Below are positions 8,401 to 54,442 of a DNA stretch of 64,000 nucleotides, piece after piece. The notes beneath the pieces are model-generated. The model had not been told where the DNA came from. It did not search any database and saw nothing but the letters and a program-made list of their open reading frames with translations. The stretch is taken from positions 32,001-96,000 of IMG/VR virus record IMGVR_UViG_3300033121_002354; one strand, written 5' to 3'. Every line of letters begins with the position of its first letter. Within the stretch, counting starts at the first letter, position 1. Position numbers and translations under genes: made by a program. Origin of the DNA: a virus. Lineage: Duplodnaviria > Caudoviricetes.

Positions 8401-9671
8401 CGGTATGGACTGCAGCCACGACGGAAGGCATTGACATATACAATTGCGACTTAAGAAGTGGTGAAAACTTTTTCTGCAATCAATCATTTGAAAAAAACAA
8501 ATTAACCATTTTGGTTTCTCAGACAACAGTTTCTACAGAAAAATGTCCAACTTCTAAAAATCTTCAAAAATGGAACAGAGAAGATACAGTTTCTACGCCT
8601 GTACCAGAGTTTATTTCAGACACAGACCAAAACGAAATAAGCAATTGGGCAAATAGCCATTTCAATTTTGGCGTTACTTCAAGCGAAAATGTAACGATCA
8701 ACTCTTTAAGATGTCAACTTTTATATTCTCAGTCACAAACTGGTGGCTGGTGTACATTCAAAAATGAAATAATAGGTACTCTTAATCAATATAAGGGCTT
8801 GTATGTTTCTGATCCGATTTTAATATCGTCACCAAACCAAAACAGCATTCATCCCAAGATAAAAATAGACTATCTTAACAGGCTTTTTATTTCTTATTGT
8901 GAAGTTTCTGGAAATGATCAGGACATCATTGTAGTAGGTACAAATACTCCAGAAAATGTGTTGCCTATAGGTACTGATTTTAGGCGAAAAAGCGACTTTT
9001 TGGGATTTGATAGTGAATTCAAATTCTTTTATGACAAAACTGATTTCACTTATCGAAGAAGAGTTACTTTGGGTGGACTAAACCAATATCCTGATATGTG
9101 GATTGACCTAAACAATGTTGTGCATATAGTTTGGCAATCCAATGTTGATCTCGACTGGGAAATCTATTATGCAAATTCGGATGACGAGTTTACTCCAGAA
9201 AGAATAACAAAACAACAAAGCAAGTCTTTACGTCCCTCAATTACGGGGGATAACAGCGGCAATCTAGTCATTGTATGGCACGATGATAGGTTTGGTGTCT
9301 GGGAAATTATGGCAGCAGTCAAGCCAGGATCTCGTATTAGACCACTATACCAACAAAATGAATACATAGCCTCGATGATTAATAATTATCAACACACAAT
9401 AGATTATGTGCCTTTTACAATAACTAATGATACTGATTCAGTAATGTGTTTCACTGATTTATATGTTTCATTTTATCAAGATCGCACACTTACAATTGGA
9501 CCTTTGTTAACTGTACGTAAATCTGATTTTCCTTTTGCATTCTCTGTTGTTTCTAGTGATCCAACTTATCCTTCTGTGCCAGACAAAATTTGTTTGCAAC
9601 CGGGTGAGTCAATCAATTTGCAAATGACATTAACTCCAGAAATTTTTACTAGTGGAGTAATTAGTCCATGA
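5454..9671 (+). CDS. Large Cys-rich / beta-propeller protein (putative virion appendage component)
   Basis: N-terminal half extremely Cys-rich with a Pro tract and CxGPDC repeats. C-terminal half has propeller blades (NQYPDMWIDLNNVVHIVWQS, SLRPSITGDNSGNLVIVWHDDRFG-WEI). Paralogous to 9668+10945. Confidence 0.8.
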   Translation: MSCIDQCTVGQICTQTFPPKCSPLVNQSCMSSCLSLIQTPPPGTGPFGPPPTPPNTPPPPADYCSGTCNWEIPTCLDNPFDSSTTGSSSTASSCVAEECSSGCCCCDSLVVADIIKPRCYDRVTVSCNSDGTATGGPNSVPFPLSCDSCFEACDLIINDPNGCSKLSTLSWWDLGNTSCSCECKNLSVVDGCLLHCAYCGKCDAEITIQNSPCEYKLIVSPSSDCCTDNKKETVQIIFFNVGSYNNSVSGPDPLVKPEEILLFQQKLSELRTICTNNGINIYGDNGLQDGITKGRAFCDPGPCCPDAIYANETEAAAYIMGNLQAVEPPQRIEIVILVHGFISDSSQDACTDINWPGYPSDFFKCLETHNAKISTIEFNRNMTDSYFSSLPQNVGANENCGSGTMGYQNCRPSSFWPSDKVIGSIAAGPTEDQYDELWALITRQKPITSCDCIDSEPKVFTFDKKDCSPRTFDVCGTTIVIDTEDINMVCCEDIGCECSQPCCTPPPNSCACGTNCTEVCSNGTKLFPSLSAAIEAVWGECKSNAISEDDNGCIKVRMNSNIVQICKADIEAQVTAAWLECEECTGPDCGSCIGPDCPCPPGNSDCNGPCTGPDCPDCPEGDPDCNNCTGPDCNNCDGPDCPDCPPGDPDCNTCIGPDCDIPNGPGPDDDCIGTNCDGSGSNPPPNLVCTADETISPNDDCFSVRHPDVVVLNNGIGLVAFEDDSDPSVIKIKQFKTSIENKVQANRTLRFGRLQNPSKWIITQSGLYRVKLYLYENISNVQVGDGIFFFNGPLAKQAFILTTVSSDSTGDYLEFSINPTNGFEFSGSYESKTDDRYDVQWITYDQNDTGLIGDRPLPTGVEADLDATKEDVDSILILPPHYFDGKKVPVAYPRITNSDNYDNNSENSQFVYVAYQALENKTWRIYLRQLRLSEFKKSADVLLTSDNISSVTPENTNEIVWTCKSTCISYDCESETKIATITSVWTAATTEGIDIYNCDLRSGENFFCNQSFEKNKLTILVSQTTVSTEKCPTSKNLQKWNREDTVSTPVPEFISDTDQNEISNWANSHFNFGVTSSENVTINSLRCQLLYSQSQTGGWCTFKNEIIGTLNQYKGLYVSDPILISSPNQNSIHPKIKIDYLNRLFISYCEVSGNDQDIIVVGTNTPENVLPIGTDFRRKSDFLGFDSEFKFFYDKTDFTYRRRVTLGGLNQYPDMWIDLNNVVHIVWQSNVDLDWEIYYANSDDEFTPERITKQQSKSLRPSITGDNSGNLVIVWHDDRFGVWEIMAAVKPGSRIRPLYQQNEYIASMINNYQHTIDYVPFTITNDTDSVMCFTDLYVSFYQDRTLTIGPLLTVRKSDFPFAFSVVSSDPTYPSVPDKICLQPGESINLQMTLTPEIFTSGVISP
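7195..7490 (+). repeat. Intragenic tandem repeat encoding Cys-x-Gly-Pro-Asp-Cys / Pro-Asp-Cys units
   Basis: CTGPDC, CIGPDC, CTGPDC, CTGPDC, CDGPDC, CIGPDC plus PDCPxGDPDC twice; DNA unit ggtccagattg / ccagattg recurs. Confidence 0.9.
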
Positions 9672-10945
9672 CTAACATAACTACCACTACACAGTCAGGA
9701 TATGCTCCTTTAAGCGTTAGTTTTACTTTTACAACTAACAAAACTGTGTCTGCATCTTTATGGAATTTTGGAGATGGAGAAACAAGCACCGAAACCAATC
9801 CAACTCACTACTATACTTGTCCTGGCATTTATTCTGTGTCTCTAGTCATAAATTCAGGTACAGTTGATGAGGACAGCAGTTTTAAAAGCAATTTAATTAT
9901 CGTTTTACACCACAGTCCAACGATGCCAAATGAATCTTGTTGTTTAGGGCCATACGAAATTGATTGCATTGACTGTACATCTGGATCAGGTACTCAGTTT
10001 GTTGACTCAACAAAACTTTACAGAACGTGTAAAAATGTTTCATGTTCTAAAACCTGCCAAGAGATTTATGGCGATATCTACACAATCATAGATGATAATG
10101 ATAACTGTCCTTCTTGCAAGGAATGTTATTTAGAGCACAAAACAACATTAGGCAGAATTTATACAGTAATTCCATCTGCTTGTTCAGTATTTATAAGTGG
10201 ATATGACTTCTCACAGGACTGTGGAGAATGTCTAGGACAAGCTGAAGAGTTTTGTTTTAGTATGGATTTATGTGAACAAAACAGTTCATGTGCAACTATT
10301 TTCTCTTTTGATAATCACACTTTCTCAATTAGAGGTACTAAATCTACATGTACAGACGGATTTGATTGTGGAGATTGCTGGATAGCTCCTAATGCTTTCT
10401 CAGAGAGTGTTTTTGGAAACGTGCCATCAACATCGACCTGTATAGATGAAGAAGAAACAGCCACAACCACCACAGAGACCAGTCCAGACATTTTGTGGCA
10501 CAACATACCATCTGGGGATAGCGGAATAGGAGTTGATTGTAATGCTGAAAACGAAATAACATCAGCATCAGAAGCACAAAGTCAACAACATCCCGTTATT
10601 GACACAATGCCATCTGGCGATGCAATCATTGCATTCGAGGAACGAGTAGACGGAGCTATCAATAAAATATCTTTATCTGAAATAAAAACTACCGTAAAAA
10701 ATTCAGTGTTAGCTTGGAGATCTCATAGTGGTGGTACGCTGGTAAATCAAGGTTCTTTAAGTGGAATAATTACATTTAGAATATACGAAAAAGCAAAAGT
10801 AGAGGTTGGACACGGCATAGGATTTTTAAGTGGTCCATTGGCCGGAAAAACTTACGAAGTTCTTTCTGCTACACAGGTATGGGATGAAAACGATTTTTAT
10901 TGGGAAGTAACATTTAATTCTGACAACCCGTTAGGAGATTCATAA
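9668..10945 (+). CDS. PKD-domain, Cys-rich structural protein
   Basis: GYAPLSVSF...WNFGDGETSTETNPTHYYTCPGIYSVSL is a classic PKD domain. C-terminal part is paralogous to the central part of the 5454 protein. Confidence 0.85.
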   Translation: MTNITTTTQSGYAPLSVSFTFTTNKTVSASLWNFGDGETSTETNPTHYYTCPGIYSVSLVINSGTVDEDSSFKSNLIIVLHHSPTMPNESCCLGPYEIDCIDCTSGSGTQFVDSTKLYRTCKNVSCSKTCQEIYGDIYTIIDDNDNCPSCKECYLEHKTTLGRIYTVIPSACSVFISGYDFSQDCGECLGQAEEFCFSMDLCEQNSSCATIFSFDNHTFSIRGTKSTCTDGFDCGDCWIAPNAFSESVFGNVPSTSTCIDEEETATTTTETSPDILWHNIPSGDSGIGVDCNAENEITSASEAQSQQHPVIDTMPSGDAIIAFEERVDGAINKISLSEIKTTVKNSVLAWRSHSGGTLVNQGSLSGIITFRIYEKAKVEVGHGIGFLSGPLAGKTYEVLSATQVWDENDFYWEVTFNSDNPLGDS

Positions 10946-13900
10946 TATCTGATTTAATCGTAAATGCTGGTAACAACATAACTGTCGCTACGGGAGTTTT
11001 TACACGTACTGCAATTATTTCTCCTGTTAGTGGTACAACCGTTGTTTGGTCTCAACTTTATGGGCCAATCGTGCCCATTACGTCAGAGGACGAAACTCTT
11101 ACTGTTACTCTAAACGATGCAGGAACTTACAAATTTAGAGCAACAGTATCTTGTCCTGCTTGTACACCAGAATCAGCATTCAGTGATGTCGTTGTTACTG
11201 TTGTAGACAATCTGCTTACCGATGTAAGCATAACCGCAAGCAGTGAGTCGATTGACCTTCAAAGTACTACTGTTACTACGCTAACTGCGTCTGTCACCCC
11301 TTCGGCTACTGAGGTAGAAAAATGGGAATGGGTTGAAAGCAGCGGAAATCCAGAATATGTTTTAACCCAAACGCAAAAATCTAGTGATTCAATAATAGTT
11401 TCTTTTAAAGAACCTGGAATATACCAATTTGAAGTTTTTGCAACTTCAAGCGGAATAACTGTAAGTGGTGGCATATCTATTACAGTAAGCGGCAACTCGA
11501 TTACTGAATCGGTCAATCTTCCGTCTTTTCCAACTTCTGATAGCTTATATAATGTTAAGTACTTTGTTTTTGATCAGAATGACACAGGACTATTTGAGCC
11601 ATCAGACATAGACCTGTCAGATGTTTTAAATTTGCCTTTACACACTTACCAATACGGGAACAAGTCTGTTACTGCTCCATGTGCATACCCATCTGTTTGT
11701 ACTGCGAAGAATAACCTTTTAATGATAAACAACGAACAATATATTTTTGTTGTTTATCAAGCATTTGTACTTGGAAAGTGGCAAATTTATTTACGTCAAA
11801 TTCGAATATCAAAACTCGATCAAGAAAATCCAAGATATTTACCACCATATGATTTTGCAGATGGAAGTAGTCCATCTTTTCACTATCTTTCTGAATCACC
11901 ACAAACTATTGTGTATATTCCTGTGGCTTTTTACACAATAAACTTAGGTGACGAAATTATTACTCGCGTTATTTATGAAATGGAAATTGAAGACGGCAGA
12001 CTTGTACTAGAAAGGGATTTTAGCGGTAACGATCCAACATATTTGAACAGAGCAAGAGTTTTAATAAGTTACAGCGGAGACTTATCTTCTTATTGGATAA
12101 ATAACAAAAACACTTTCGCATTTACAAGCGAATTACCAAACCTTCATGGAGACAATATTGTACCACCATTTGATTTGATAAGCTCAATGATTTATGGAGT
12201 ACATCCAGTGCAAAGATTGGGGCAATTTAGTAAATGGGTGTTCTTCGCACAGGCCGGAGATCTGGTTTTTGATGATCCCAACGGGTATGGTTCTGGCGGC
12301 ACAAGTGTTACTCATCCAGTTTTAGTTGCCAAAAGTTCTGGACATTGCACTCGTCCTAAAACGTTTTTAAACGCAAATAACGAGCTAATGGTCGCATACG
12401 AAGACACTGCTAGCGGAATCCCTCAAATAAAAATAACAGGGACTGGAGATTTTTGTGGAGACAGTCTGTACGGACCAACCGGAAGTTATTTAACCAAATT
12501 TTTCCAGTCGTCTGACTTTAAATTTTCACATACAGTAACAAGAGAGGGGATCAACCAGGTTCCAGATATTTTTGTTGATGACTCAAATATAACTCACATG
12601 TGTTGGCAATCAAGTAAAGATGCGGATTGGGAAATTTATTATGCTAACAGCAAAGACTATTTCAATCCAGTTCGAATTACCAAATCAAAAGGAAGATCAA
12701 CGAATCCCAAACTGGCTGTAAATTCTCTTGGTATTTACATAACATACCATGATAACAGATTTGGTGAATATGAAATTTTGGTTTCAAAAAAGCTTCAAAA
12801 TCAACCAACTCCTCTTTTGCAACAAGAAGGATATTTGGCTTCACTAAGAAACGGTTATTCTCATTATATAAATACATTGGAGTTCATTGTAAAAAACACC
12901 AGAAACTATGATACTAATATTGGAATTAAACTAGAGTTCTATGATAATAGAGTGTTTTTTGGCTCAAGGACAGAAATTGTTTCAACAGCATTAAATCCAG
13001 ACAATTTTCAATTAACAGATGATTCGTTTGTGGTAGATTTTGCTACAGGCGTTTTTGTGGCTCCCGGTCATGCACGGAAAGTGCTGTTTGTTGTTGGAAA
13101 TTCTTCTTTCAATTTTAGTCCAAATCAAACATATTTTGTAAAAATTTCATTTGTTTTTCATGACGGCACTGAAGAAGTGTCAATACAGCCAATTAGTTTT
13201 TCGTGTACTACATGCAATATACCAGTAGAAAGTCGCTGGACAAGTTCGGCCTCTGGATATTCGGATATAAGAATTACAGATTCTGCAGGAAACAGCGTAA
13301 GACCAACAATCACCAGTCTAAAAAATGATACAATTCTTATACTGTGGGAAGACTTCAGATTCAGCAACGAAAGTCAAGTATTAGGGGCACTAATAGACGA
13401 CAGAAACGATATTTTAAAATCAAGCGGAAGTCAAAACTGGTTTGATTACAACTACAACATTAGTGGGCTACAACCAAATGTTACAAACGATTTATTTGGG
13501 CGTACCATTACCACTTACAGCAAAACAGGTACTTCTGCTGGTCAACTGCCAGTAACAACAGTTTCTTATAAGCTTTGTGATTTTATACAAGAAGCAACAG
13601 CTCCAAATCAAAATTCTAAAATTTGTGCAGTGCCTTTTTCTGACACACAAAATACGGAAGATTCCCAAATCTATAACTTGGCACGCATAAAAAGAGCAGA
13701 TATTAACTACTTTACCATAAACAATGATTCATCTTTTACGCCTGTTGTATCAAAACGAAATATTAACATAACACTAATTGGGTCGCCAGATTTGGTTGCT
13801 TACAGGGTAAAAAACGAAAATGATACTGTTTATGGTGAATGGATCAATTTTAGTCCAGAAATAAACAATTACACAACAGAATTTAAATGGGTTTTGTCTC

Positions 13901-43135: not shown

Positions 43136-43973
43136 ATTCTGATTTTTTCATACCTGTAAACTTATATTGATAGCACTTTACTGGGTTGGGAAGCATAAAC
43201 TTAAATAAATCACCAATTGATTTGGATTCAATTCTAATCATATATTCTGAATATGATTTACGTTTATACACAACGATATGTGATTTGATATCTAATTTGT
43301 CTAATTTTTTAATAAGAATATTTTCTATCTCATTGTATAGAAATCCGTTTGTACAAAAAATTAATTCCGAACGATTATCTCTTTTTCTGTAACTTCCATC
43401 TCCTAAAAACCATAATAATGTTGATAATGGTGTAATTCTGACATCTTTTGGAATTATTTTAACTCCATTTGGATACCATCTTATTAATTGTGTATGTGTA
43501 TCTGGATGATATTTTGTAGTTCCAACATTACTAATACTAAAACCATTCTTTAGTCGTGGATCATAAACTTTCTTTTTGATAAATGTTGGATTATAACACT
43601 CAAATTCTTTCATTAAATAACGACAAAACTCTTCATGTTGAACCGTGCATCCATACGCACACCCAACAGAACTTGGCTTAATGTATCCATCACCAAGCAA
43701 AAATCCATCTATCCACTCTAAAAGATGTTCATTTAAAAATGAAACAGAATAATCACAGGAAGCTCTTAAGATGTTTTCTTCTATTTTGGATCTCGTTTTT
43801 ATCCCACAAGCTATAGCTCGACGGCGAACTTGAGACACATCCATTGAAAAATTATATTTTTCTTTAACTAACGCACAAATTTTTGGAAATGACAATTCCT
43901 TATTTATATAGTAATGATTAAAAAAATCAAGCGTGTATATCTCGTTAGCTATTTTAGAATGTTTTGCACCCAC
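43119..43973 (-). CDS. Free-standing two-motif LAGLIDADG homing endonuclease
   Basis: Motifs WIDGFLLGDGYI and LLWFLGDGSY, FCTNGF, C-terminal CYQYKF; N-terminal HTH-like segment. Confidence 0.9.
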   Translation of the reverse strand: MGAKHSKIANEIYTLDFFNHYYINKELSFPKICALVKEKYNFSMDVSQVRRRAIACGIKTRSKIEENILRASCDYSVSFLNEHLLEWIDGFLLGDGYIKPSSVGCAYGCTVQHEEFCRYLMKEFECYNPTFIKKKVYDPRLKNGFSISNVGTTKYHPDTHTQLIRWYPNGVKIIPKDVRITPLSTLLWFLGDGSYRKRDNRSELIFCTNGFLYNEIENILIKKLDKLDIKSHIVVYKRKSYSEYMIRIESKSIGDLFKFMLPNPVKCYQYKFTGMKKSEFMLLK

Positions 43974-44020
43974 ATATAGTTATGTGATATTTATGCACAA
44001 AATCCTATTGCAACTCTTCA

Positions 44021-44317
44021 TTATTTTTGTTTCTCCATTAAATCTGTCAAACAAATTGCTGCTACTACACTTCTCAATCCATTGCCATGAGGAGTATCGG
44101 GCACTCCCTGATTTTTCATCACTTGTTTAGCCTTTATTTTATAGCTATTAAATTCTGCCATTGAAATTTCAATAATTGCTGCCGAAGGCATTGTTTTATA
44201 TCTATTTAACAACTCATTTCTTGTTTTGCAATCAGTATTGCCTGATTTTTTCCACACATCAAAATCTTCCTCTGTTGGAATAATACACCCAATTTTACCT
44301 GCTGTTAATAATTTCAT
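44021..44317 (-). CDS. Hypothetical protein
   Basis: 98 aa; AGGAG Shine-Dalgarno just upstream (ctcct at 44323-44327 on the + strand). Confidence 0.7.
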   Translation of the reverse strand: MKLLTAGKIGCIIPTEEDFDVWKKSGNTDCKTRNELLNRYKTMPSAAIIEISMAEFNSYKIKAKQVMKNQGVPDTPHGNGLRSVVAAICLTDLMEKQK

Positions 44318-44410
44318 ATATTCTCCTATTTAGAGTTTATGCAAACAAAACTTGCACCAACAACGCTGCTGCTGACTGTTTGAAAAAATTCTTTTCTCGA
44401 ATTCACTTTG

Positions 44411-44421
44411 TTCCGTATAAT
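44411..44421 (+). promoter_or_regulatory. Putative promoter -10 element (TTCCGTATAAT), possibly driving a leaderless mRNA
   Basis: TATAAT 5 nt before the GTG at 44427; TTCCGTATAA recurs at 46923-46932. Confidence 0.45.
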
Positions 44422-44426
44422 TAAAT

Positions 44427-45164
44427 GTGGGCATCTATTCTCAACCACACGAACATACCGATATAGTTGTTCTAACCCATAACGGTTTAGAGTTTACTAA
44501 GTGCTGTATCCACAACATTCAAAAGCACACAAAAAACTATACCCTAATAGTTGTGGACAACGCCTCTTCAGATGATACGATAAAATATCTTAAAAAACAA
44601 GATGTTGTCCTGATAGAAAACAAAACAAATCGCGGTGTTGCTGGCGGAAGAAATGACGGACTTAAGTCTGGAACGTCAGAATTTTGTATATGTCTTGATA
44701 ATGATCAGTATGTCGGAGAAGATTGGTTAGAAGAGTTATTTACGTTTATTCACAAAGGATTTGATACGTGCGGAGTTGATGCTTGGCAAATGAACGAACC
44801 AACACATCCTAGAGCTTATATACCAAGAAAGCATTGTCAGTCAAAATATGATATTCCAACCTATATTGGGGGTGGTGGACACTTAATTAAAAGAAGCATT
44901 TTAGATGAGTTTAATTTTTTTGATGAGGTTTTCAATCCGTTTTATTACGAAGATTCAGATCTGTATTTCAAACTTCACAAAAAAGGCTATAAATCATTTT
45001 GGAATTCTAAGCACAAAATAAAGCACGTTGGTAACAGCACCGTCACTTCTTTTAGCCGCAGTCAACAATTTATTAAAACACATAAGATTTTTAAAGAGCG
45101 TTGGTTTCCATATTTTCCAGAACCTCTCACAATTTGTTGTGATATAGACAGAATTTTAGCATGA
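44427..45164 (+). CDS. Glycosyltransferase family 2 (GT-A fold)
   Basis: DIVVLTHN, IVVDNASSDDT, NRGVAGGRNDG, DxD motif LDND, FDEVF..YEDSDL. Confidence 0.92.
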   Translation: MGIYSQPHEHTDIVVLTHNGLEFTKCCIHNIQKHTKNYTLIVVDNASSDDTIKYLKKQDVVLIENKTNRGVAGGRNDGLKSGTSEFCICLDNDQYVGEDWLEELFTFIHKGFDTCGVDAWQMNEPTHPRAYIPRKHCQSKYDIPTYIGGGGHLIKRSILDEFNFFDEVFNPFYYEDSDLYFKLHKKGYKSFWNSKHKIKHVGNSTVTSFSRSQQFIKTHKIFKERWFPYFPEPLTICCDIDRILA

Positions 45165-48850: not shown

Positions 48851-51148
48851 ATGATCACATTAGTATTGGGCAATGTAGATACTCGTATTGTTGGCGAGAT
48901 ATCTGATGAGGAATATTATGACCTCAGAAGATATCTTTCTTTTCGTCCATCTGGTTTTCTTTTTCACCCCCTTTACAGAAAGAAAATGTGGGATGGATGG
49001 GCCAGACTTATTAAGAAGAATAAAGGCGGAATCACCTTTCCAAGCGGGCTTCTTTCTCTCGCAAAAGAAGGATTAACAGAGCTAAATATTCCATTTTGCG
49101 TAAAAGATGGTCGTACAAAACCACAACCAACTCTGGAAATAGAATTAAGCTCAAATATAGTTTTGCGTGATTATCAGGAGCTGATAAAAAATCACTCATG
49201 CAATACAGGAAGAGGTCTTATAGGACTAGCGACAGGCGGGGGAAAAACTGCAACCAGTGCAGCCTTGATTGCCGAACTTAAAGTGAAGCCATTTTTGTTT
49301 TTGGTGACTTCTATAGATCTCTTAGAACAAACAGTAGAAGCTTTCGAAAATTTCTTGGTGCAAAACGGCAAACCTGCAAAGATTGGCAGAGCCGGAAATG
49401 GCATTGTTGATTTACAAGATATTACCGTTATGACAGTACAAACAGCTATGAGAGCTTTAGGGAAGAAATACAAAAAATACGACTCTGAAAGCTCCGACAG
49501 AAAAGAGAACAATGGTGTCATAGCAAAATACCGCAAAGAACTAGTTCACTTTATGACAACATGTCAAGGGGTCATATGTGATGAATGTATAACTGGTGAT
49601 TCTATTGTGCTGACAAAAAATGGCCCACAACGAATGGACAAATTAAAAACAGGGCAGGAAGTGCAGAGTTTAAGTGGTAATAGTGTTGTATGGAAAAAAA
49701 TAACTCATTTTTATCGCAAAGGGAAGAAAAAGACATTCAAAGTCCTGCTGAACAACAACCAAAGCATTCGTTGCACAGCAGACCACTTAATCAGGACAAG
49801 CAAAGGCTGGAAACCGGCAGGTTCGCTAAAACAGAACGACCAGATTTTGTGTTCTGGGAACATGACAGTGGCGGATATGGAGACAGAACTGCATCATTCA
49901 GAACTTCATGCCATCCAGAATTATCACTTATCTATAACATTACTCACGTTAATGGCAAAAAACATCTCTCAGAACAGTGGTTGGACAGAATTGGAGCAAT
50001 CGGAATGGCATGGTGGGTTTGCGATGATGGAAGCAGATCAAAATCATCAATCAGACTTCATACAGAAGGGTACTCGCTGCAGGAAGTCGAGATCGCAGCA
50101 AGCTGGATATCACGTATATACGGAAAAGTTTCCATCTACAAATATAAACATAAAGAATACAGAACACTCGGTCTCGGAAAAACAGCAACCGATAGAGTTA
50201 TTACAGAAATCGCGGAATACGTTCCAAAATGTATGGAATATAAACTTTGCAAGTGTTAACTCGGTAGAACCTTGTGGCGAAGAAGAAGTTTTTGATATAT
50301 CGGTTGAAGACACTCATTGTTTTTTTGCAAATGGAATGCTTGTTCATAACTGTCAACATTGGAGAGCAGACCAGTGTCAAACTGTAACCAAAACTCTCGA
50401 AAATGCATATTACCGTTTTGGAGCTTCTGCCACCGCCTTCAGAGATGAAGGTGATGATATGGCTATTCAATCGTGCTTTGGTAAGTTTTTGTGCAATATA
50501 AAAGCATCTGAACTTATTGAAAAAGGATATCTTGTACAACCAACAATCAACATTGTTCACTATAAACCAAAATTTGTAAAAGGAAACACTTATCAAGAAA
50601 TATACAAAGAGTGCATTGTTGAGGATAAAAAGTACAATGCGTTGGTAGCAACCACAGCAAATAACTATATTAACCAAGGACGATCTGTCCTTATACTTGT
50701 ACAGCAAATTAATCACGGCGAATCTCTCGCCAAGATGATTCCTGGTGCTCTTTTTGTTTGTGGTGATAGTCCAAAAAAAGAGAGAACAGCAGCACTCAAA
50801 ATGCTGCATAGCAGGAAAATAAAATGCATTGTTAGTACATCAATATTTGATGAGGGCGTAGATATACGGTCGCTAGATACACTTTTAATGGCTGGCGGCG
50901 GAAAAGCAAAAACAAGAGCACTTCAACGTGTTGGCAGAGTATTAAGGATATTTGATGGGAAGAAAGATGCTATCGTGATAGACTTTAGTATTCATGTTGA
51001 ATATTTGTTAGGCCACGCAAAAGAAAGAGAAAAAATTTACAGGACAGAACCGTTGTTCAATATAGAACACATCCCAAATAAAAATGACCCACCAGAAGTT
51101 TGGGAAAATCTTGGATTTTCAAATCACAAAACTCAAAAGCTATTGTAG
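48851..51148 (+). CDS. SF2 DExH helicase (UvsW/ResIII-like) containing an intein
   Basis: LRDYQ Q-motif, ATGGGKT Walker A, DE|CQH Walker B after splicing, SATAFR motif III, EGVDI motif V, QRVGRVLR motif VI. Confidence 0.92.
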   Translation: MITLVLGNVDTRIVGEISDEEYYDLRRYLSFRPSGFLFHPLYRKKMWDGWARLIKKNKGGITFPSGLLSLAKEGLTELNIPFCVKDGRTKPQPTLEIELSSNIVLRDYQELIKNHSCNTGRGLIGLATGGGKTATSAALIAELKVKPFLFLVTSIDLLEQTVEAFENFLVQNGKPAKIGRAGNGIVDLQDITVMTVQTAMRALGKKYKKYDSESSDRKENNGVIAKYRKELVHFMTTCQGVICDECITGDSIVLTKNGPQRMDKLKTGQEVQSLSGNSVVWKKITHFYRKGKKKTFKVLLNNNQSIRCTADHLIRTSKGWKPAGSLKQNDQILCSGNMTVADMETELHHSELHAIQNYHLSITLLTLMAKNISQNSGWTELEQSEWHGGFAMMEADQNHQSDFIQKGTRCRKSRSQQAGYHVYTEKFPSTNINIKNTEHSVSEKQQPIELLQKSRNTFQNVWNINFASVNSVEPCGEEEVFDISVEDTHCFFANGMLVHNCQHWRADQCQTVTKTLENAYYRFGASATAFRDEGDDMAIQSCFGKFLCNIKASELIEKGYLVQPTINIVHYKPKFVKGNTYQEIYKECIVEDKKYNALVATTANNYINQGRSVLILVQQINHGESLAKMIPGALFVCGDSPKKERTAALKMLHSRKIKCIVSTSIFDEGVDIRSLDTLLMAGGGKAKTRALQRVGRVLRIFDGKKDAIVIDFSIHVEYLLGHAKEREKIYRTEPLFNIEHIPNKNDPPEVWENLGFSNHKTQKLL
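49586..50350 (+). mobile_element. Intein (255 aa) inserted in the helicase Walker B motif
   Basis: Block A CITGDSIVLT, block B IRCTADHLI, block F VFDISVEDTHCFFANG, block G VHN followed by +1 Cys. Confidence 0.93.
49690..50259 (+). CDS. LAGLIDADG-family endonuclease encoded out of frame inside the intein
   Basis: FRTSCHPEL..NGKK...MAWWVCDDGS...IRLHTEGYSLQEV...YVPKCMEYKL parallels the 43119 enzyme (HP..NGVK..WFLGDGS..FCTNGF..YQYKF). Only one LAGLIDADG motif is visible. Confidence 0.75.
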   Translation: MEKNNSFLSQREEKDIQSPAEQQPKHSLHSRPLNQDKQRLETGRFAKTERPDFVFWEHDSGGYGDRTASFRTSCHPELSLIYNITHVNGKKHLSEQWLDRIGAIGMAWWVCDDGSRSKSSIRLHTEGYSLQEVEIAASWISRIYGKVSIYKYKHKEYRTLGLGKTATDRVITEIAEYVPKCMEYKLCKC

Positions 51149-51157
51149 GTTCCTGTT

Positions 51158-52537
51158 ATGCCAATTCAATTTAAAACGAAGTTCAAATGGGACACCGAAA
51201 CTTCCCCGAACGAAACGTTCCAAAGACCACTGCACGAAGTAATTCAACTCATTCGCCACTTACCAAATCCATACATTGGTAATAAAAAGAAACTGTTGCG
51301 TTCACTTCATAACTTCATGCAGAACAACAACTTGAAATTTGACACCTTTCTTGATGCATTCACAGGAAGTGGAGTTGTCGGGTTGTTTATGAAAGCTATG
51401 GGTAAGCGAGTTATTGCCAATGATTTACTGGCTTGTTCATACTTAAATGCTGTTGCTCTAATAGAAAATTCTGGAACAACTTTGTCTCCAGATCAGATTG
51501 GATCTATTTTGAACAAAAATACGCTAGAAAGCGACTTTGTTCAAAAGAACTGGATGAGCACCTCAAACACGACTCAATTGCGTAGAAGATTTACTGAAAA
51601 TGAAGCTATCCAGTTAGATCACATTAGATCCAACATTAAAAACTTAAGCCAGTTTACCGCTCAAAGTATTGGATTAACAGCAAACAGTTTAGTGTGCATG
51701 AGAATGCCATTCGGTTTTGCTGATAGAAGCATTGATATTTACAACCACCGCAGAAAACAAATAGAAAAGTATGGAAAAGACTCAGGTAATCACGATAGAC
51801 GTATAGGAATTTATTACGATGACAATCTAGATCTTGATTTCAAGAAGTGGTTTCCAAAGTACGTAGGATCTATTAATAAAGCCGTCTTAAACAACTCACA
51901 GATTGTTAATGACGCAAAAATACAACATGCCTTGGCATTCTTCGGTATACAGAATTATTTGTATCACGAAGCATTTAAAGGCGGCAGATTGAACAACGGA
52001 CAAATACTGAAAAGGGTAGATACTCGCAAAGAACAAGATGGAGTGATGAGATTTACCCAAGAAGATGTTCAAAAGATGTCTTTTGCAGAATTAAGCTCTG
52101 TAGGAAAGTGCAGTTGTATTGCTACTAATTGTGACGTTATAGATCTGTTACAAAGCGGATTTGTAGACGTTGAATGTGGTTATTTTGATCCTCCATATGG
52201 TGGAAGTTCAAGTGATTACCTGTCAATGTATCAGTTTTTTGAAGAATTTATCTACGAAGAACAAATTGAAAATCTTCCCCATTTCAAATCTATGGATAGA
52301 TTTTCGAAGAAAACTGATTACGAAAAGAACTTTCTTGATCTGTTAGATGCTGCCAAGAACATTCCTATATGGGTGTTTTCATATAACGATAAGTCATGGC
52401 AGGGTTTAGAGCATATTATTTCCCTGATTAAAAAGTTTAGAGGCCATGTAGTTTCCGAAATTGTGGACTACAAATACAAATACAGAAGCAAAAATAACGC
52501 TGCGGGCAAAGAATATTTGATCGCGGCAACAGTATAA
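51158..52537 (+). CDS. DNA adenine methyltransferase (D12/Dam-like alpha class, M.FokI-type), orphan
   Basis: YIGNKKKL, FLDAFTGSGVVG, VIAND, YFDPPY, FSYN, KEYL. Confidence 0.88.
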   Translation: MPIQFKTKFKWDTETSPNETFQRPLHEVIQLIRHLPNPYIGNKKKLLRSLHNFMQNNNLKFDTFLDAFTGSGVVGLFMKAMGKRVIANDLLACSYLNAVALIENSGTTLSPDQIGSILNKNTLESDFVQKNWMSTSNTTQLRRRFTENEAIQLDHIRSNIKNLSQFTAQSIGLTANSLVCMRMPFGFADRSIDIYNHRRKQIEKYGKDSGNHDRRIGIYYDDNLDLDFKKWFPKYVGSINKAVLNNSQIVNDAKIQHALAFFGIQNYLYHEAFKGGRLNNGQILKRVDTRKEQDGVMRFTQEDVQKMSFAELSSVGKCSCIATNCDVIDLLQSGFVDVECGYFDPPYGGSSSDYLSMYQFFEEFIYEEQIENLPHFKSMDRFSKKTDYEKNFLDLLDAAKNIPIWVFSYNDKSWQGLEHIISLIKKFRGHVVSEIVDYKYKYRSKNNAAGKEYLIAATV

Positions 52538-52544
52538 TTTAAAC

Positions 52545-53040
52545 ACATATTCAAGGCTCTCCCACTTCCTTGTTGGAGCCGCGACGGCAATTTTACACCC
52601 AGAGATGGGAATGACCGAAACAAGGTGAACTATTTCGTCGAATGCCATCTATTCAATCGCTTTGGCATTTGCATTAGAGATTTAGTTCGAATAACTATTT
52701 TAGCGGTTGAAGTGTCATGTCGCTTTTACAAGAATGAGTCCATTGCCCTCCTTACGGATACGTGCTTAAAACTCAATAAGTATTAGTAGTGGCTCACAGG
52801 CGTGCTACCAGTTGTTATGGAAACCCTGACTGGATTAATAGACACGTCGTGGCAGGGGTCTGAGATTAGGTTAAAGCCATATGGTGAATAAGCACCCTGT
52901 TCTGCTTAATGCAGGATTGAATACCTAAAACTCATCGAAACGCTCAGCTTTATACTGCAGTTTCGTTAGAGAATGACCACTGGTAAAGTAAGTCTCTTTT
53001 TTGGGCCTTATTTTTTACCAGGGGTTACTTTCTCTACAAC
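52545..53040 (+). ncRNA. Candidate large structured non-coding RNA of unknown family
   Basis: ~560-bp gap without a credible ORF, GC-richer than its flanks, tiled with stems (see findings); G-U pairs favour the + strand; TATAAT at 52533-52538. Confidence 0.55.
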
Positions 53041-53099
53041 TCGCATTACCTGCAATCAGTAAATTTGACCCGTTGAACAATTTATCTTATATTTGACAC

Positions 53100-53552
53100 A
53101 TGAATTACGAACTATATACAGATGGGTCTTGCAACCCAAATCCAGGTGAAGGTGGTTGGGCGTTTATAATAGTAGAAGTAGATGAGCCAAGGTCTATCAA
53201 GTCAACTGGAAGTGGATACGAACCAGTATCTACTAACAACCGCATGGAAATGATGGCGTTAATAAAGGGACTTGAAAAGTACAACGAAATTAAAACTCCA
53301 GAAGATACTCTTACCGTAGTCACAGATAGTATGTACTTATTAAACGGAACAACCAGATGGTCTAAAAAGTGGTGCAAGAACAACTGGACACGTAAACCAA
53401 GTCTTAAAAACGTAGATTTGTGGAAACAAATAAGGATTCTGGACGACTTAACAAAGGGCGTTTTCAGAAAAGTAAAGGGACATGCCGGTGATTATTATAA
53501 TGAACAAGTAGACGTACTTGCAAAAGCATGTTGTAGTAAAAATATTTGCTGA
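53100..53552 (+). CDS. rnhA: Ribonuclease HI
   Basis: YTDGSC.PNPG.GGW, TNNRMEM, VTDSMY, KNVDLW, KVKGHAG..NEQVD: all catalytic acidic residues present. Confidence 0.95.
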   Translation: MNYELYTDGSCNPNPGEGGWAFIIVEVDEPRSIKSTGSGYEPVSTNNRMEMMALIKGLEKYNEIKTPEDTLTVVTDSMYLLNGTTRWSKKWCKNNWTRKPSLKNVDLWKQIRILDDLTKGVFRKVKGHAGDYYNEQVDVLAKACCSKNIC

Positions 53553-54442
53553 ACACGTCTTTTAGATCTTATCTTTATCTTACTATGGACGATAAAGAAC
53601 AGCTTATTCGGTATCTTGATCGAATAAACAAGAAAACTCCACAGACTCCCGTTCCAAACGACCAGCCCCAACAAAAAAGGTTGTTCACTGTATCAATTCT
53701 TAACGAAAAACCGTATGAGCTTGATTATCAACTGGTCAAGAGAAACAAGTTTCCACCAGACATTTCAAAGCTTTCAAAGTGGAACAATGCAGATTTTATT
53801 AAATACATTCTGTCAAAAACTAAAAACGTATTTATTGAAAGTACTCCAAGTAACAGTTTGCTGCTTAATCATTTAAGAAATAATCTGTCTAAATCAATAG
53901 GTTTTCACTTAGAAGATGAAACTCATGTATGTTCGAATCACGAATTAAAGGACTACATTGACTATTGGATCAATGTAGTATCCAGCAATAAGAAGACCAA
54001 TGTTGATTGGATGTGTAGTAAGAAATCGGTTAGACAATATGTGTCTAATTATTATGTTGCCTCAAATTACAAACAAACCTTAGAAGAACTTATATTGAGT
54101 GGAAAATTCGAAGATGCCTTATTGGAGCATGGGATAGTAAATTTCTACGAAAGAAGTATCAAGAAAAACAAAGTAAAGAAAACACTTACTATTCTCAAAG
54201 AGACAATAGACTCTTTGGATCAACAGCGGTTTTTGCAAGTTTTTAAACAACTTCTGAAATCTTATCCTTACAAAATAGAACAGAAGTTTAAAGTGAATTT
54301 TATTATAAGAGAGGCGATAACAAAGTTTGATCTGAAGAAGTGGTTTGACTGTGATTTTGATGGAAAATTGTTTAAGACAGAAGAAGAAATAGCACGTATA
54401 AATCAAAAGAAGAAAAGAGATTTAGGTGATCAATGGGTGTAA
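53546..54442 (+). CDS. Hypothetical basic protein (start may be ATG 53585)
   Basis: Long Lys-rich ORF between rnhA and the AAA ATPase. Confidence 0.7.
   Translation: MLNTSFRSYLYLTMDDKEQLIRYLDRINKKTPQTPVPNDQPQQKRLFTVSILNEKPYELDYQLVKRNKFPPDISKLSKWNNADFIKYILSKTKNVFIESTPSNSLLLNHLRNNLSKSIGFHLEDETHVCSNHELKDYIDYWINVVSSNKKTNVDWMCSKKSVRQYVSNYYVASNYKQTLEELILSGKFEDALLEHGIVNFYERSIKKNKVKKTLTILKETIDSLDQQRFLQVFKQLLKSYPYKIEQKFKVNFIIREAITKFDLKKWFDCDFDGKLFKTEEEIARINQKKKRDLGDQWV

Follow-up and report, generated by a model that had tools for sequence, protein, structure and literature searches.

A single significant hairpin in a lineage-specific non-coding gap ahead of RNase HI in a huge-phage replication region

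A gap of 562 nt separates a DNA methyltransferase gene from the RNase HI gene (rnhA) in a 64,000-nt stretch of phage DNA, hereafter the window. Here, we find that this gap is non-coding, that its base composition is anomalous for the genome, that it contains a significant hairpin of 70 nt, and that the region is not conserved among related phages. We infer, at a probability of roughly one half, that the gap is a lineage-specific non-coding spacer that arose by gene rearrangement and carries a promoter together with a hairpin acting as punctuation or as an operator. A preliminary description of the same DNA had proposed a large phage non-coding RNA (ncRNA) or a structured cis-element; the second part of that proposal holds for the 70-nt hairpin (z −4.9), whereas the first finds no footing, as the body of the gap is at background stability and has no homologue among the phages searched.

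The window comes from an IMG/VR virus record of 113 kb, with an estimated completeness of 23% (CheckV). Relatives of the record include complete genomes of 476 and 488 kb, and it therefore belongs to a huge-phage clade. The gap (52538–53099) extends from the methyltransferase stop codon (TAA, 52535–52537) to the rnhA ATG at 53100. The upstream gene (51158–52537, + strand) encodes a D12-class N6-adenine DNA methyltransferase, as assigned by Pfam PF02086 and the alignment consensus of 144 homologues, and its C-terminus stops at the same residue as the homologues' ends. Downstream, RNase HI (53100–53552, + strand; Pfam PF00075, 1.3e-33; PHROG 531) is followed by the conserved protein p298 (53546–54442, + strand), which by synteny and a tblastn match to p279 of the related locus L021 (4.6e-8) is the orthologue of a gene of ~280–310 aa that lies directly 3' of the methyltransferase in relatives. 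An AAA+ ATPase, a DnaC-like loader, DnaB and a primase-like protein come next, and all genes of this region are on the + strand.

Two further observations concern the surrounding genes. The UvsW-like helicase at 48851–51148 contains an intein (Pfam Intein_splicing, residues 253–500); its orthologue in L018 is uninterrupted, and for L007 the fragmented tblastn match points to an insertion of ~1.4 kb at another site, between residues 112 and 140. Most gene starts in the window, for example those at 314, 24461, 48851 and 53100, have no recognisable Shine-Dalgarno sequence, which suggests a host with Shine-Dalgarno-independent initiation.

The gap had been described as the only long intergenic gap in the window; it is the longest, but others reach 343, 453 and 384 nt. 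What sets it apart is composition. Its G+C content is 0.41–0.42 (about 0.42–0.45 in the body), where the genome averages 0.36; no other non-tRNA gap is as high, the rest falling between 0.28 and 0.38. Among genome gaps, two tRNA arrays alone exceed it, at 0.44 and 0.46.

The gap is non-coding, whether read in the standard code or with recoding. TAA, TAG and TGA are each present in every one of the six frames. Recoding of a stop codon would thus leave no gene open, and a recoded gene was ruled out as a candidate. An 81-codon stop-free stretch continues in frame past the methyltransferase stop, but its codon-usage score is −0.11, as against 0.33 ± 0.12 for the real genes of this phage. This frame has no Pfam or PHROG match, and a comparison with 1.84 billion representative proteins returned one fragmentary match only (E 3e-4). 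No remnant of IF3, RNase H or other ORFs of the genome (paralogues including rnhA) was detectable in the gap; together with the lack of a family match, this ruled out a decayed gene.

Searches for known RNA families gave an equally empty result. Over the whole window, cmscan with Rfam 15 produced no match at gathering score, and at E ≤ 10 the interval 52300–53300 yielded five chance-level matches (E 0.9–8.8, 14–18 bits) to miRNA, snoRNA and BMV pseudoknot models. By Rfam 15 the gap is not a member of GOLLD, ROOL, OLE or HEARO, nor a group I/II intron, RNase P RNA, tmRNA, 6S RNA or riboswitch. ARAGORN detected no tRNA or tmRNA in the window, and the 17 tRNAs of the genome all lie outside it. 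The preliminary description had seen no tRNA, tmRNA, RNase P or group I/II signature, and these searches agree. Elsewhere in the record, between two tRNA arrays (L036:9358–9420, − strand), Rfam gave a weak additional tRNA-like match of 33 bits that ARAGORN did not report.

We compared the fold of the gap with dinucleotide shuffles and with the genome itself. The whole 562 nt folds on the + strand at −156.9 kcal/mol versus −134.0 ± 6.5 for shuffles (z −3.52; z −3.64 with a second independent shuffle set), while the − strand gives z −0.97 and −0.70 with the two sets. The + strand is thereby 18 kcal/mol more stable than the −, at equal shuffle means. As background, 30 windows of 562 nt were drawn at random from this genome; they are mostly coding and have a mean z of −0.91 (sd 1.16, minimum −2.92). 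In a genome-wide scan of 500-nt windows regressed on G+C, which covered one strand only, those over the gap rank 31st and 204th of 451.

The excess is not spread along the gap. In unbiased 150-nt sliding windows, 52900–53049 alone stands out (z −4.75); windows over the central body score z 0 to −2, the same as the flanking methyltransferase gene. Removal of the 3' hairpin and tail leaves a body of 427 nt with z −1.53 on the + strand, where 10 of 100 shuffles are equally stable, and z −0.11 on the −. Because −1.53 lies inside the genome background, the body is no more stable than ordinary sequence of this phage, and the hairpin at 52967–53036 supplies about two thirds of the excess stability of the whole gap. 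The claim that the region is more structured than chance thus stands for the hairpin and lapses for the body (52538–52966, + strand), a non-coding stretch with many predicted short helices, while the whole gap owes its score mostly to the hairpin. The region is one significant hairpin plus pairings that any sequence of that length and composition would offer.

Most of the helices listed in the preliminary description do recur in the minimum free energy (MFE) structure and partition function, with pair probabilities of 0.85–0.99, and many helices of the gap exceed 0.9. The retained ones are GGCUCU/GGAGCC, CCCA-GAGA-UGGG, CCAGUUG/UGACUGG, GGUG/CACC, UUCUGC/GCAGGA, CGAAAC/GUUUCG, the 70-nt hairpin and AAUGCCA/UGGCAUU, the last as a stem of 9 bp. 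Several others are absent from the MFE structure: TAGTT/AACTA, AGCGG/TCGCT, TTGCC/GGCAG and ACGTG/CACGT are displaced by other helices, and CGACGG, instead of pairing locally with CGUCG, pairs at long range with 53070–53075. This last pairing belongs to a predicted stem between 52582–52596 and 53059–53075 (both + strand), which in the partition function of the 562-nt fold has pair probabilities of 0.86–0.88 and would close the whole region; its 3' arm overlaps the −35-like hexamer of the promoter-like site discussed below. The mismatches had further been said to be mostly G-U on the + strand, as for an RNA from that strand. The counts do not show this, with 18 G-U pairs among 161 on the + strand and 14 among 158 on the −.

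Within the gap, only the hairpin at 52967–53036 is clearly non-random. This imperfect inverted repeat has a U-rich loop and 28 predicted pairs with probabilities of 0.86–0.98, and it is ~15 kcal/mol more stable than its shuffles, none of 200 being as stable. Its z-score is −4.87 on the + strand and −4.20 on the −; near-equal stability on both strands is as expected of a DNA inverted repeat. As modelled, it also has the properties of an RNase III-type site, namely an imperfect duplex of at least ~20 bp between cistrons on the mRNA strand. We rejected the hairpin as an intrinsic terminator, as it is followed by no U-tract but by CAACUCGC and no terminator was called; the scan found no terminator-like site anywhere in 52000–53600. 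Canonical terminators are used elsewhere in the genome (genome positions 230–310).

The most stable long gap of the record (z −6.1) lies outside the window, at the very start of the record (L036:1–526, genome 1–526). Two textbook intrinsic terminators are found in it, along with the palindrome TGTATATACA in five copies; this palindrome, probably a regulatory motif, shows no enrichment in the window.

Between the hairpin and rnhA, a promoter scan identified TTGACC-17-TATATT at 53065–53093 (+ strand), starting after 28 nt 3' of the hairpin and ending 6 nt before the ATG. The match is to consensus only, and the same bases also fit TTTG-N21-TAnnTTTG (53064–53095); neither consensus occurs more often than shuffles would predict. 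We regard it as a plausible promoter on sequence grounds. The 5' end of the gap offers less: a TATAAT noted there is present (52533–52538), but it overlaps the stop of the methyltransferase gene, lacks a −35 partner and is not among the sites that the promoter scan called. By the same scans, neither a promoter at the 5' end nor a terminator defines a transcript, and no − strand promoter was found within the gap.

To place the gap in its evolutionary context we used the methyltransferase, alone and as alignments, to retrieve 14 related loci from IMG/VR, JGI metagenomes and a GTDB MAG. Their common gene order is p374, UvsW-like helicase, methyltransferase, the p298 orthologue, IF3, AAA+, DnaC-like and DnaB. 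No gap follows the methyltransferase in ten of the 14 (L017, L022, L024–L031); in L018 and in L021/L020 it is followed by A+T-rich gaps of ~200 nt. A 500-nt gap at the same junction in L007 was considered as a counterpart and rejected, as it has no similarity and folds at z +1.25. By tblastn, none of the 14 loci has an RNase H at this position. In our phage, IF3 is absent from this junction and from the entire 113-kb record. The synteny across L007 and L017–L031 indicates that the gap and rnhA together are a lineage-specific rearrangement of a conserved module and not its conserved part.

Sequence searches with the gap agree. The check for homologues of the element came back empty: blastn found none among GenBank phages and no copy in the fetched related loci, BLAST found no copy in five related huge-phage records, and single-sequence covariance models of two parts (R1, 52733–52851; R2, 52859–53038) found no copy in those five records and 15 loci. 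In IMG/VR, an RNase H search recovered only genes of 35–42% identity that have no upstream gap, and an AAA+ search recovered no relatives; the methyltransferase and p298 have nothing related among GenBank phages. The closest methyltransferase relatives came from Logan assemblies (P0002, P0004 and P0006, at 59%, 55% and 50% identity).

The related loci show variation of their own. Between the p279 gene and the AAA+ ATPase, IF3 lies at L018:8371–8868, L021:1881–2372 and L007:7753–8236, and in L007 it is split into N- and C-domain ORFs. The AAA+ ATPase orthologue in L027, L028 and L030 (~8500–11600) is ~800–1000 aa long, and ~1.3 kb interrupts its tblastn match after residue 369, a pattern that suggests an intein or other insertion absent from our phage.

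L018 and L021 each have a strong inverted repeat of their own, different from the one here; it lies 35–45 nt ahead of the gene that comes next after the methyltransferase and scores z −3.3 to −4.4 whichever strand is folded. The group thus repeatedly shows a strong inverted repeat where the replisome block begins, as would suit an operator or a hairpin that serves processing or stabilisation.

We propose that the junction was rearranged in this phage, with rnhA gained, IF3 absent and 562 nt of G+C-richer non-coding DNA placed before rnhA. The functional part would most likely be the 3' end of the gap, where the hairpin is followed by the promoter-like site leading to rnhA and the replisome genes. 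The hairpin may act as transcriptional punctuation that sets the methyltransferase message apart from the replication operon, either in RNA, as an RNase III-type double-stranded processing site or 3'-end-stabilising site, or in DNA, as an operator for a dimeric regulator. The ~430-nt body would probably be a passive 3' untranslated tail and possibly a remnant of acquired DNA. Several findings count against a spacer. A G+C content above that of every other non-tRNA gap is what one would expect of RNA genes when a genome is A+T-rich, and the tRNA arrays of this one conform; the + strand folds better, with many confident pairs; and phages rarely keep 430 nt of useless DNA. Against the role given to the hairpin and promoter stand the missing U-tract in a genome that has canonical terminators and a promoter match not above chance.

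The reading that comes second is a large structured ncRNA of ~500 nt (~52555–53075) restricted to one lineage of the ~480-kb huge phages. In such a model the long-range stem would close a multi-branch core of 8–9 hairpin domains that might act in trans, the RNA being made from the + strand, either by processing of the 3' tail of the methyltransferase message or by transcription from an unrecognised promoter of its own, at the head of the replication operon and beside an acquired RNase HI. The whole-gap z-scores on the + strand only, the well-defined helices with their predicted closing stem, the G+C enrichment resembling that of the tRNA arrays and the lack of coding signal or of any Rfam claim all speak for it. 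Each sub-domain also folds better on the + strand than on the −, though the sub-domains were picked from the MFE structure, which biases their z-scores. The G+C content, strand bias and long-range stem are suggestive and not decisive, as coding windows elsewhere in the genome also reach 0.44–0.47 G+C. Against the model, most of the excess stability belongs to a single hairpin, the strands show no G-U asymmetry, neither promoter nor terminator delimits the element, and no search found a homologue of an element that sits outside the conserved module. We consider a large ncRNA unlikely: it is unsupported, yet compatible with the missing Rfam match, the elevated G+C and the + strand bias. If real, it would join the few large ornate RNAs known from phages, as a singleton from a ~480-kb clade without a cultured member.

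The remaining three readings are less likely than either a spacer or a large ncRNA. One is a cis-acting untranslated region, in which a folded leader in read-through transcripts would set mRNA stability or processing for rnhA and the replisome genes. The shared + orientation of the genes, the lack of a terminator between methyltransferase and rnhA, a structure directly 5' of rnhA and a hairpin resembling double-stranded processing sites would all suit it. Such a leader is nonetheless doubtful, as the predicted fold leaves the rnhA start codon and its surroundings unsequestered, 560 nt far exceeds known leaders, most of that length is not significantly structured, and relatives run the same operon without the gap.

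A replication origin is highly improbable. It would have a structured transcript hybridise to the template, be cut by the adjacent RNase HI and prime DNA synthesis in the manner of ColE1 RNA II, and it draws on a position inside the replication module directly before RNase HI, a length near that of RNA II and a G-C skew that steepens from about 48–54 kb onward. Both the gap and rnhA are missing at this place from relatives that share the replisome genes, and the gap has no direct repeats, iterons or A+T-rich unwinding stretch, no antisense promoter was found, and it lacks DnaA-box-like sites. Seven near-matches to the DnaA box, each with one mismatch, instead lie at 43264–44754 around a divergent 453-nt gap (43974–44426), where the cumulative G-C skew of the record also has a local minimum (about 44–48 kb); across the window as a whole, such sites are no more numerous than chance predicts. 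If skew and boxes are informative in this phage, this interval, ~8 kb upstream, may be a better origin candidate than the gap at 52538–53099.

A hidden small or recoded gene, either the 81-codon frame that shares the methyltransferase frame or a 53-aa GTG ORF at 52625–52786, is close to refuted by the stop codons in every frame, the poor codon usage and near-empty protein searches of the 81-codon frame, and the shared end point of the methyltransferase homologues.

Set against known systems, the gap first invites comparison with the GC-IGR approach, in which long, G+C-rich intergenic regions of A+T-rich genomes predict ncRNA (PMC5737381). At 562 nt and with the highest G+C of any non-tRNA gap of its genome, it resembles such candidates, which then need comparative support (PMC5737381). 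GOLLD, ROOL and OLE are large ornate ncRNAs of bacteria and phages (PMC12286853). The gap is like them in its ~500-nt length, phage location, predicted multi-branched fold and G+C content above its surroundings; unlike them, it has no cmscan match even at E ≤ 10, no homologues and a body of background stability, and whereas those families rest on deep alignments, this element has none. The analysis carries a caution: a sequence of 560 nt and 42% G+C can always be tiled with plausible helices, and here a respectable whole-region z-score derived mostly from one hairpin.

ColE1 RNA II is the primer of an R-loop-type origin. Like it, the gap is a non-coding region of ~550 nt, beside RNase HI in a replication module. 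It differs in having no antisense RNA I-type promoter or conserved origin features, in not being conserved among phages with the same replisome, and in that the DnaA-box-like sites and skew minimum lie ~8 kb upstream.

The R sites of phage T7 are intercistronic RNase III processing hairpins. The hairpin described here differs from them in that it spans ~70 nt with small bulges and without the typical T7 internal loop, its cleavage is putative, and, being just as stable in the form of a DNA inverted repeat, it could instead be an operator. It shares with them a long, imperfect duplex of ~28 bp between cistrons on the transcribed strand, with no U-tract, and a position where two functional gene blocks meet. 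In three members of this phage group a strong inverted repeat lies just before the first gene of the replisome block, which hints at a shared form of operon punctuation or control.
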